Shown here one piece after another: positions 12,916 to 13,919 of a stretch of DNA of 14,994 bases. Below the pieces are notes generated by a model. That model was not told the origin of the DNA and did not search any database. It worked only from the letters and a program-made list of their open reading frames with translations. Made by a program: the position numbers and the translations under genes. The stretch is from a virus (lineage: Duplodnaviria > Heunggongvirae > Uroviricota > Caudoviricetes). The DNA is taken from IMG/VR virus record IMGVR_UViG_2681813161_000005. One strand, written 5' to 3'. Every line of letters starts with the position of its first letter. The stretch's first letter is position 1.

Positions 12916-12930
12916 GGTAATGACTCCAAC

Positions 12931-13326
12931 TTACTGATAGTGTTTTATGTTCAGATAATGCCCGATGACCTTGTCATGCAGCTCCACCGATTTTGAGAAC
13001 GACAGTGACTTCCGTCCCAGCCTTGCCAGATGTTGTCTCAGATTCAGATTATGTCGCTCAATGCGCTGAGTGTAACGCTTGCTGATAACGTGCAGCTTTC
13101 CCTTCAGGCGTGATTCATACAGCGGCCAGCCATCCGTCATCCATACCACGACCTCAAAGGCCGACAGCAGGCTCAGAAGACGCTCCAGTGTGGCCAGAGT
13201 GCGTTCACCGAAGACGTGCGCCACAACCGTCCTCCGTATCCTGTCATACGCGTAAAACAGCCAGCGCTGACGTGATTTAGCACCGACGTAGCCCCACTGT
13301 TCGTCCATTTCAGCGCAGACAATCAC
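12931..13326 (-). CDS. insB: IS1 transposase InsB
   Basis: [28 protein letters not shown]...HYLNIKHYQ matches IS1 InsB. Confidence 0.9.
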
Positions 13327-13352
13327 ATCACTGCCCGGTTATATGCGCGAGG

Positions 13353-13628
13353 TTACCGACTGCGGCCTGAGTTTTTTAAGTGACGTAAAACCGTGTTGAG
13401 GCCAACGCCCATAATGCGTGCACTGGCGCGACATCCGACGCCATTCATGGCCATATCAATGATTTTCTGGTGCGTACCGGGCTGAGAGGCGGTGTAAGTG
13501 AACTGTAGTTGCCATGTTTTACGGCAATGAGAGCAGAGATAGCGCTGATGTCCGGCAGTGCTTTTGCCGTTACGCACCACGCCTTCAGTAGCGGAGCAGG
13601 AAGGACATCTGATGGAAATGGAAGCCAC
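13353..13628 (-). CDS. insA: IS1 protein InsA
   Basis: [43 protein letters not shown]... matches IS1 InsA. Confidence 0.9.
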
Positions 13629-13683
13629 GCAAGCACCTTAAAATCACCATCATACACTAAATCAGTAAGTTGGCAGCATTACC

Positions 13684-13919
13684 CGCTCGACGAGTGGAAA
13701 CCAAAACGGTTCAGTCTCACTACCCTGGTGAAATACGGAAAACTAGGATACATCGTTCCAAGACCACAAAAAATTCGTGGGCGTTGGCTGATAGATCGCC
13801 GAGCAGTATTTGTTGGGCCAGGTGAAACGGGAATTGCGCCGGAAATTCATACTGGCGATGATGATGCACTGAAGGAGATTTTAACTCATGTCACCGAGGC
13901 CACGAAAAAACAGCACTGA
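13684..13919 (+). pseudogene. xis: Excisionase (lambda Xis-like), 5' end removed by IS1
   Basis: ..LDEWKPKRFSLTTLVKYGKLGYIVPRPQKIRGRWLIDRRAVFV parallels lambda Xis (LTLQEWNARQRRPRSLETVRRWVRECRIFPPPVKDGREYLF). No ATG and no Shine-Dalgarno remain after the IS1 end; overlaps the int start. Confidence 0.65.

Follow-up and report, generated by a model that had tools for sequence, protein, structure and literature searches.

The window, by which we mean the whole 14,994-nucleotide stretch of DNA that was analysed, carries a complete IS1 element near its right-hand end (Table 1). To the left of IS1 lie three phage-borne tRNA genes and a DNA methyltransferase gene transcribed leftward, and to the right lie an excisionase gene (xis) and an integrase gene (int), both transcribed rightward. 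The two genes that adjoin IS1 have each lost their 5' end. A preliminary description of this DNA had placed IS1 between the 5' ends of the divergent xis and methyltransferase genes; this was upheld when the truncations were mapped against intact relatives. Its coordinates and its account of positions 12916-13919 likewise agreed with our IS1 boundaries, Pfam domains and flank alignments.

Table 1. Features around the IS1 element, in window coordinates
Feature	Coordinates	Strand	Basis or remarks
Three phage-borne tRNA genes: Arg-TCT, Arg-TCG, CAT (tRNA-Ile in the annotation of relatives)	11608..11857	-	ARAGORN; RefSeq annotation of relatives
DNA N6/N4 methyltransferase pseudogene	11898..12915	-	Pfam PF01555 N6_N4_Mtase, E=4.7e-44
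Hybrid ORF, 95 aa	12642..12929	-	TTG start inside IS1 IRR, reading into the methyltransferase up to the nonsense codon
Complete IS1, 768 bp	12916..13683	-	Alignment to three E. coli IS1 copies; limit of flank homology
IS1 inverted repeat IRR	12916-12938		Adjoins the methyltransferase; arms 88% complementary over 26 nt
IS1 inverted repeat IRL	13661-13683		Adjoins xis
insB part of IS1	12931..13326	-	Pfam PF03400 DDE_Tnp_IS1, E=1e-74
insA, 91 aa	13353..13628	-	Pfam PF03811 and PF12759 (Zn_ribbon_InsA, HTH_Tnp_IS1)
Open frame running from IS1 into the xis remnant	13509..13919	+	Antisense to insA; ORF list
xis (excisionase) remnant	13684..13919	+	Alignment to the 270-nt excisionase of E. coli AF14 and O157
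Lambda-type tyrosine integrase (int), 368 aa	13888..14994	+	Pfam PF09003 Arm-DNA-bind_1 and PF00589 Phage_integrase

The IS1 element

As expected of IS1, the element is 768 bp long and is bounded by imperfect terminal inverted repeats of about 23 bp that start GGT(A/G)ATG. Annotated E. coli IS1 copies aligned with it over the full length at 91-96% identity. The A6C frameshift motif, TTAAAAAAC, is present at IS1 position 305. When we simulated a -1 frameshift at this site, a TAA appeared in the insB' frame 12 codons further on (13339-13341). Read from this copy, the InsAB' fusion would end at about 96 aa, and full-length InsAB' would not be makeable. The corresponding codon is CAA or CAG in the E. 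coli copies and in the S. flexneri 6 loci. A copy that bears the TAA could not now make its own transposase. A sister genome, L013, which is 99.98% identical to the window, carries a second IS1 between pepT and potA, about 15 kb away and 100% identical to the first.

Both genes that adjoin IS1 are truncated

Relative to the intact 1,059-nt gene of E. coli O121 (locus L003), the methyltransferase sequence is gap-free and 97% identical from nt 42 onward. The first 41 nt (13 codons and 2 nt) are missing, and the alignment ends exactly at the end of IS1. A TGG-to-TGA change at 12642-12644 introduces a nonsense codon, at codon 105 of the 352-aa relative. This nonsense codon, which the preliminary description did not mention, is common to all Shigella loci checked (9/9). 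Although the DPPY catalytic motif is present, the reading frame is not uninterrupted, and because of the missing 5' end and the TGA we regard the gene as a pseudogene. The 95-aa hybrid ORF that starts inside IS1 is a side effect of the junction and can be used as a marker specific to it. The tRNA trio lies directly downstream of the methyltransferase; what survives of the late region begins with it.

On the other side of IS1, the xis remnant is 99% identical to the 270-nt excisionase genes of E. coli AF14 and O157:H7, beginning at their nt 23. The 22 nt before this point, ATGAGCGAACAGTACCTGATAA, which include the native ATG and seven codons, are gone, and the end of IS1 stands in their place. 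The remnant matched the PHROG 629 excisionase family with E=2.8e-20 (profile positions 7-81 of 82), compared with E=4.6e-26 for the intact relative, and it overlaps the start of int by 32 nt. We therefore identify the gene as an excisionase on the basis of the PHROG match, the overlap with int and the RefSeq annotation of its relatives. Pfam PF07825 (Exc) is marginal even for the intact relative (23.2 bits against a cut-off of 23), and the remnant had no Pfam Exc match. A search of NCBIfam returned no match for Xis or Int, and a search of the PDB by sequence for a lambda Xis structure as an anchor gave only chance-level matches for xis. Lacking a start codon of its own, the xis remnant is a pseudogene of the family rather than a functional member.

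The statement that xis has no start codon stood as far as the native start is concerned; the frame itself stays open for 175 nt into IS1, where it could be read from a TTG at 13509 (136 aa) or an ATG at 13548 (123 aa). Gene callers placed hybrid products of 64-140 aa at this IS1-xis frame in the sister genomes. A simple promoter scan of IS1 outward toward xis found none, and the sole end-proximal match in the scan was the element's own insA promoter on the other strand. Nothing in the sequence suggests that the hybrid ORF would be expressed. The remnant also carries an in-frame deletion of 12 nt (codons PITN) between 13718 and 13719. This deletion was absent among the full-length E. coli matches listed and varies among the Shigella loci with this junction, some having it and others not; the sub-lineage to which the window belongs has it.

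IS1 is not flanked by a target duplication

The 9-mers that flank IS1 are CAGTCGGCG (12907-12915) and CGCTCGACG (13684-13692). They differ, in agreement with the report of no 9-bp target duplication in the preliminary description. As a positive control, an IS1 at another position in the same xis gene, in E. coli TW10598, does show a perfect 9-bp duplication, GGCCTGGTG. The two 9-mers of the window agree at 6 of 9 positions, and we considered whether they might be a decayed duplication; this was rejected, as each matches the native sequence of the gene it lies in at 9 of 9 positions. The missing duplication is what is expected of a deletion junction and is no argument against the identity of the element as IS1. 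The absence of such duplications is generally attributed to adjacent deletion or to recombination between IS copies (PMC11708052).

Intact relatives locate the endpoints and the missing region

The preliminary description had proposed comparison with intact relatives, and this comparison located the endpoints at xis nt 22 and methyltransferase nt 41. E. coli TW10598 carries the same int-xis module at potB/potC. Its gene order is int, xis, a RecE-like exonuclease gene, ydfD, dicB, ydfCBA, a divergent pair of HTH repressor genes, ydaT, replication genes, a DUF968 gene, rusA and Q, and the distance from the start of xis to the start of Q is 13.3 kb. In E. coli O121, the distance from Q to methyltransferase nt 41, downstream of it, is 1.4 kb; further downstream come the three tRNA genes and the lysis genes. 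From these two relatives we estimate the lost interval at about 15 kb, a composite figure drawn from two mosaic prophages rather than a measured length.

None of the early-region genes is present in the window, and neither early genes nor Q were found in the whole potB-potC interval of L013, in line with the claim that the early region, including Q, is absent. The genes said to be missing had been listed from the lambda map as exo/bet, N, cI, cro, O/P, nin and Q. A functionally equivalent block with Q does lie between the two endpoints in the relatives; its genes, however, are of the Rac/Qin type (RecE-like exonuclease, dicB, ydfABC, the HTH pair, ydaT, DUF968 and rusA). As in other IS-bounded deletions, a single IS is present, its flanks are collinear with an undeleted relative, and the intervening genes are absent. 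With the interval, the prophage has lost its early, regulatory and replication region together with Q and, judging from lambdoid maps, probably the late promoter.

A different possibility is that the junction joins two prophages that once lay in tandem at potC, in which case the deletion would have been much longer than 15 kb. Lambdoid prophages are mosaic, and the methyltransferase and xis-int modules, at 97% and 99% identity to their E. coli relatives, could have separate histories. However, AF14 holds the methyltransferase/tRNA module and the exo-xis-int module together in one potC prophage, and in Shigella the distance from potB to the attR-proximal tail-fibre-assembly stub is 232 nt, the same as in TW10598, which has a single prophage there. 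Nothing requires a second prophage, and we consider this origin highly improbable.

The early region might also have been relocated rather than lost, either by an IS1-mediated inversion or translocation or by reintegration of an excised circle carrying IS1 and the early region. Shigella genomes are heavily rearranged by IS elements, and early-type genes do exist elsewhere: one Shigella genome (L014) holds another lambdoid remnant with nin-type genes and a full-length copy of the same methyltransferase. That copy, however, has a complete 5' end as well as the remainder of the gene, which marks it as part of a paralogous prophage and not as the reciprocal product. The missing 22 nt of xis occurred in no fetched Shigella locus (about 10 kb on either side), the missing 41 nt of the methyltransferase only in L014, and the same sequences contained no reciprocal junction. 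After an inversion mediated by IS1, the segment is enclosed by two IS1 copies in inverted orientation. A simple inversion, which the preliminary description had named as the alternative to deletion, cannot leave both junctions on one 768-bp IS1 with flanks in their native, collinear orientation, and it was rejected. Relocation in any of these forms is, in our estimate, extremely improbable.

The junction pair is shared among Shigella loci

We retrieved Shigella loci by exact-protein look-ups with the 368-aa Int and the 95-aa hybrid ORF (L004-L011, L013 and L017-L026). In every locus retrieved (about 18), both junctions lie 768 bp apart on one IS1. The look-up with the hybrid protein returned 10 places, all with the truncated methyltransferase followed by IS1, the xis remnant, int and potC. 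Carriers include S. boydii ATCC 8700 (CP026731), 602068 (CP049285) and Sb227 (CP000036) and S. flexneri serotype 6 strain 703427 (CP162080). Probes of 100 nt spanning each junction were run against 5,426 complete E. coli genomes and found neither junction in any of them; the only matches were internal to IS1. The left junction was also unmatched in a collection of species-representative genomes, in which Shigella genomes were not searchable. Because all retrieved Shigella loci share the junction pair and no complete E. coli genome has either junction, we conclude that the deletion is old and fixed and has been inherited. The literature searched yielded no specific description of a potC prophage in Shigella or of the methyltransferase-IS1-xis junction. 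The junction pair (methyltransferase nt 41, IS1, xis nt 23) could serve as a lineage marker.

Because IS1 occurs in so many copies in Shigella, and IS copies are points at which short-read assemblies break or are wrongly joined, the junction might have arisen by repeat collapse that falsely linked two IS1-flanked contigs. The junction pair, however, is found on one IS1 in many independent assemblies, including several closed long-read chromosomes and the Sanger-era sequence of Sb227. The probability of such an artefact is practically negligible.

Neither the age of the event nor its route could be read from the IS1 sequence itself. Among the Shigella loci, each of the four possible combinations of the insB' codon (TAA or CAA) with presence or absence of the 12-nt xis deletion is found, which implies gene conversion among IS1 copies or recurrent mutation. 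We dropped this approach for that reason.

Taken with the comparison to E. coli, these results make it very probable that the window is the right-hand part of a lambdoid prophage remnant of about 14 kb, located at potB/potC in Shigella (S. boydii and S. flexneri serotype 6 lineages), in which a single IS1 marks a deletion between xis codon 8 and methyltransferase codon 14.

Two possible routes to a deletion marked by one IS1

The preliminary description had attributed the loss to an IS1-mediated deletion. A deletion marked by a single IS1 is borne out by the intact relatives; the comparison does not discriminate between transposition and recombination between IS1 copies as its cause. In the first route, IS1 would have inserted at one of the two sites, in xis or in the methyltransferase gene. 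Intramolecular replicative transposition of that IS1 into the other site would then have produced an adjacent deletion. Such an event would keep one IS1, discard the intervening DNA as a circle and leave no 9-bp duplication.

In the second route, two IS1 elements would have inserted in direct orientation, one at xis nt 22/23 and the other at methyltransferase nt 41/42, and host homologous recombination between them would have removed the interval together with one IS1. The end product is identical: one IS1 with non-matching flanks, collinear with the ancestor. Shigella chromosomes carry hundreds of IS copies, most of them IS1 (PMC7373316), and the identical IS1 of L013 lies only about 15 kb away. 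Independent IS1 insertions in the same xis and in the same methyltransferase gene occur in E. coli. A single insertion would have duplicated CGCTCGACG at xis nt 22/23 and CGCCGACTG at methyltransferase nt 41/42, and both 9-mers that flank IS1 have C as the first letter and G as the last, which would fit an earlier role of each as an IS1 target.

Against recombination between two copies, three events would be needed instead of two. No intermediate with IS1 at one site only was found among the 5,426 complete E. coli genomes or the retrieved Shigella loci, an absence that counts equally against adjacent deletion. We lean slightly toward adjacent deletion because it needs two events and not three, and we would put its probability, as a mechanism inferred from the end product, a little above even. 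Recombination between two IS1 copies is a serious competitor, with a probability somewhat below even.

The remainder of the prophage and its candidate attachment sites

In L013 the whole insert between potB and potC measures only about 14 kb. From the potB end, it consists of a 22-aa tail-fibre-assembly stub, an IS66-type element interrupted by IS629, a DUF3950 gene, a TonB_C protein gene, and genes for Rz, lysozyme, ydfR and holin. These are followed by DUF826, DUF1378 and DUF6645 genes, IS629, an IS2 orfA stub, a truncated SASA esterase gene, the tRNA genes, the methyltransferase remnant, IS1, the xis remnant and int. No head or tail gene is left, and the IS66-type element stands in their place without an 8-bp target duplication. 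The remnant has been degraded further and independently of the IS1 junction, by the head-tail loss at the IS66-type element, the insertions of IS629 and IS2, the methyltransferase nonsense codon, the loss of the int tail and the 12-nt loss in xis.

The integrase is nearly complete. Its Pfam domains cover 1-65 of 74 profile positions (PF09003) and 2-169 of 172 (PF00589), and the translation shows the HxxR and LLGH...Y motifs. At about 14989-14991, a 1-nt insertion that turns GTT into GTTT gives rise to a TAA, and the last four residues (KLVI) of the 372-aa E. coli form are lost; the 368-aa Int is otherwise identical to that of E. coli AF14. It carries the source name "MULTISPECIES ... [Shigella]". 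The C-terminal tail of lambda Int makes contact with the adjacent monomer (PMC9791396). The int gene of Sb227 has an additional frameshift near codon 316.

A 14-bp direct repeat, TGAATAAGAAGGTG, is found at the potB end and just upstream of potC. Repeats of the form TTTTGG(A/G)GA occur three times in tandem adjoining int and once about 125 bp inside the opposite end. The 14-bp repeat and the shorter repeats look like candidate core and arm-type attachment sites, respectively.

These features bear on the proposal that the prophage is locked in. This is plausible but would be over-determined, the xis-IS1 junction not being the sole block. Excision of lambda needs Xis besides Int and IHF (PMC9791396). 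We infer that without native Xis there would be no efficient excision, without Q and pR' no late transcription, and without control of the pL/N/cII type no regulated expression of int. Both att cores, the candidate arm-type repeats and a nearly full-length int survive, and excision could in principle be supported by the IS1-xis hybrid ORF or by a cognate Xis provided in trans.

Comparison with known deletions and cryptic prophages

The classical precedent for adjacent deletion is the set of IS1-promoted deletions in the gal region of E. coli K-12. As in those deletions, one IS is kept at the junction, the DNA on one side of it is lost, there is no target duplication, and the flanks are collinear with the ancestor. 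The Shigella case differs in that the event is inferred from comparative genomics rather than observed, with recombination between IS1 copies giving the same product, and in that the IS1 copy has a stop codon in the insB' frame.

No other IS is as abundant in Shigella chromosomes as IS1, which is present in hundreds of copies, and IS expansion there has been linked to gene inactivation and genome reduction (PMC7373316). The potB-potC locus resembles this genome-wide picture in that IS1 is dominant in Shigella and in that IS629, IS2 and an IS66-type element are also present at the locus; it differs from it in scale, the published account being a genome-wide catalogue of insertions and gene loss (PMC7373316). 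The kind of event described here is already known, as a textbook IS-bounded deletion in a cryptic lambdoid prophage; what is new is the exact pair of endpoints and their distribution. The locus is a clean, well-controlled example of how a prophage that could be induced is turned by insertion sequences into a fixed remnant in the Shigella chromosome; it is ordinary and opens no new question.

The deletion could also be read as a step in domestication rather than mere decay, one that, by taking away the repressor, replication, Q and Xis functions, fixed a harmless remnant in the ancestor of S. boydii and S. flexneri 6, where it was retained for something useful. The useful parts would be the three rare-codon tRNA genes, or possibly the lysis cassette or int. 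We consider this reading unlikely; if it held, the junction would be a stable lineage marker under indirect selection.

DLP12, Rac and Qin are cryptic lambdoid prophages of E. coli K-12. Both these and the decayed prophages at potC in E. coli AF14, TW10598 and O157:H7 resemble the Shigella remnant in that they have kept int (with or without xis) and a lysis cassette and have lost regulatory or structural genes to deletions and IS insertions. The potC prophages of the three E. coli strains also share the potB/potC site and the int-xis module with Shigella. They differ from it in their lesions: AF14 has an IS1-bounded deletion of its own, from about nt 735 of the methyltransferase gene to the exonuclease gene and without a duplication; in O157:H7 a tail-tip gene is fused to the exonuclease gene; and TW10598 has a plain IS1 insertion in xis together with structural deletions. 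The same prophage family at potB/potC has decayed independently in each lineage, with different endpoints.

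Decay of the IS1 copy and the xis remnant

The IS1 copy at the junction is bounded by two 9-mers that are identical at 6/9 positions (binomial p ~0.01), each with C as its first base and G as its last, and three further complementary bases (GCG/CGC) lengthen the IS1 inverted repeat. Since each 9-mer is native sequence, this match reflects either chance or IS1 target preference. The copy is unable to encode full-length InsAB', as a TAA lies in the insB' frame 12 codons past the A6C frameshift site. In S. flexneri 6 strains, and likewise in L011 and L024, the IS1 at this locus has CAA instead of TAA. 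The pepT-potA interval of the sister genome L013 contains a second IS1 that is 100% identical to that of the window, TAA included.

The xis remnant has a 12-nt in-frame deletion that removes codons PITN. Comparison of loci L004-L013 showed that the deletion is shared by the window, L005, L008, and L013. The PITN codons are kept in L004, L006, L007, and L009-L011, all of which have the same IS1 junctions, indicating that the deletion occurred later than the truncation of xis. All four combinations of the xis deletion and the TAA/CAA codon were seen among strains, which implies either gene conversion of IS1 or recurrent mutation.

Positions of features of the prophage remnant and of related loci
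Feature	Window	Other loci	Remark
9-mers flanking IS1	12907-12915, 13684-13692
insB'-frame TAA	13339-13341		minus strand
Second IS1		L013 4241-5008
12-nt xis deletion	13718/13719
Early end of int	14989-14994
Second IS-bounded deletion	1-2694	L013 7356-11302
IS66-type element	within 1-2694	within L013 7356-11302	~2.5 kb; split by IS629
IS3-family element (IS629/IS1203-like)	1-1268, 5647-6955, 8395-9703		1309 bp; 3 copies
Truncated SASA (NanS-like) esterase	10039-11118		adjoins interrupted IS2 orfA stub
Putative att/arm regions	outside window	L013 ~7092-7105, 7222-7234; L004 ~11190-11280
IS1-joined deletion, E. coli AF14		L001 6500-9707
Direct fusion, E. coli O157:H7 PV15-279		L027 17474-19917
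Other lambdoid remnant, Shigella CP026867.1		L014 16785-21275

A second IS-bounded deletion

The prophage carries a second IS-bounded deletion, in which an IS66-type element is flanked by a 22-aa tail-fibre-assembly stub adjoining potB and by DUF3950/TonB_C/Rz genes. This element occupies the position where the terminase-to-tail genes are expected. No 8-bp duplication was found around it, the flank being GAACAACA on one side and TACTATCG or TATCGTAT on the other. Among the IS629/IS1203-like copies, the middle one, placed between lysozyme and holin, is present in L008 and missing from most sister genomes, and is thus a recent insertion. The third breaks an IS2 orfA stub.

Independent deletions in related prophages

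Large deletions independent of that in Shigella were found in E. coli members of this potC prophage family. In AF14, an IS1 that lacks a TSD links methyltransferase nt ~735 with an exonuclease truncated at its 5' end. In O157:H7 PV15-279, a truncated tail-tip gene is fused directly to a truncated exonuclease. Another lambdoid remnant, in Shigella CP026867.1, holds a paralogous copy of the window's methyltransferase, with its 5' end intact and the gene split into two ORFs, preceded by DUF968, KilA-N, RusA, and Dam genes. Given this remnant, phage nin-region genes elsewhere in a Shigella genome are not by themselves a sign of relocation.

Integrase and attachment sites

A 1-nt insertion within a T run makes int stop four codons short, with loss of residues KLVI; the Int protein is otherwise identical to that of E. 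coli AF14. In S. boydii Sb227, an additional frameshift near codon 316 removes the catalytic C-terminus. The 14-bp direct repeat TGAATAAGAAGGTG, with one copy at the potB 3' end and the other just upstream of potC, marks the putative surviving att sites. Three tandem TTTTGG(A/G)GA repeats lie in the interval from int to the core; these and one more copy ~125 bp inside the opposite prophage end resemble the P' and P arm-type Int sites of lambda. The last codons of potB are replaced by the prophage.
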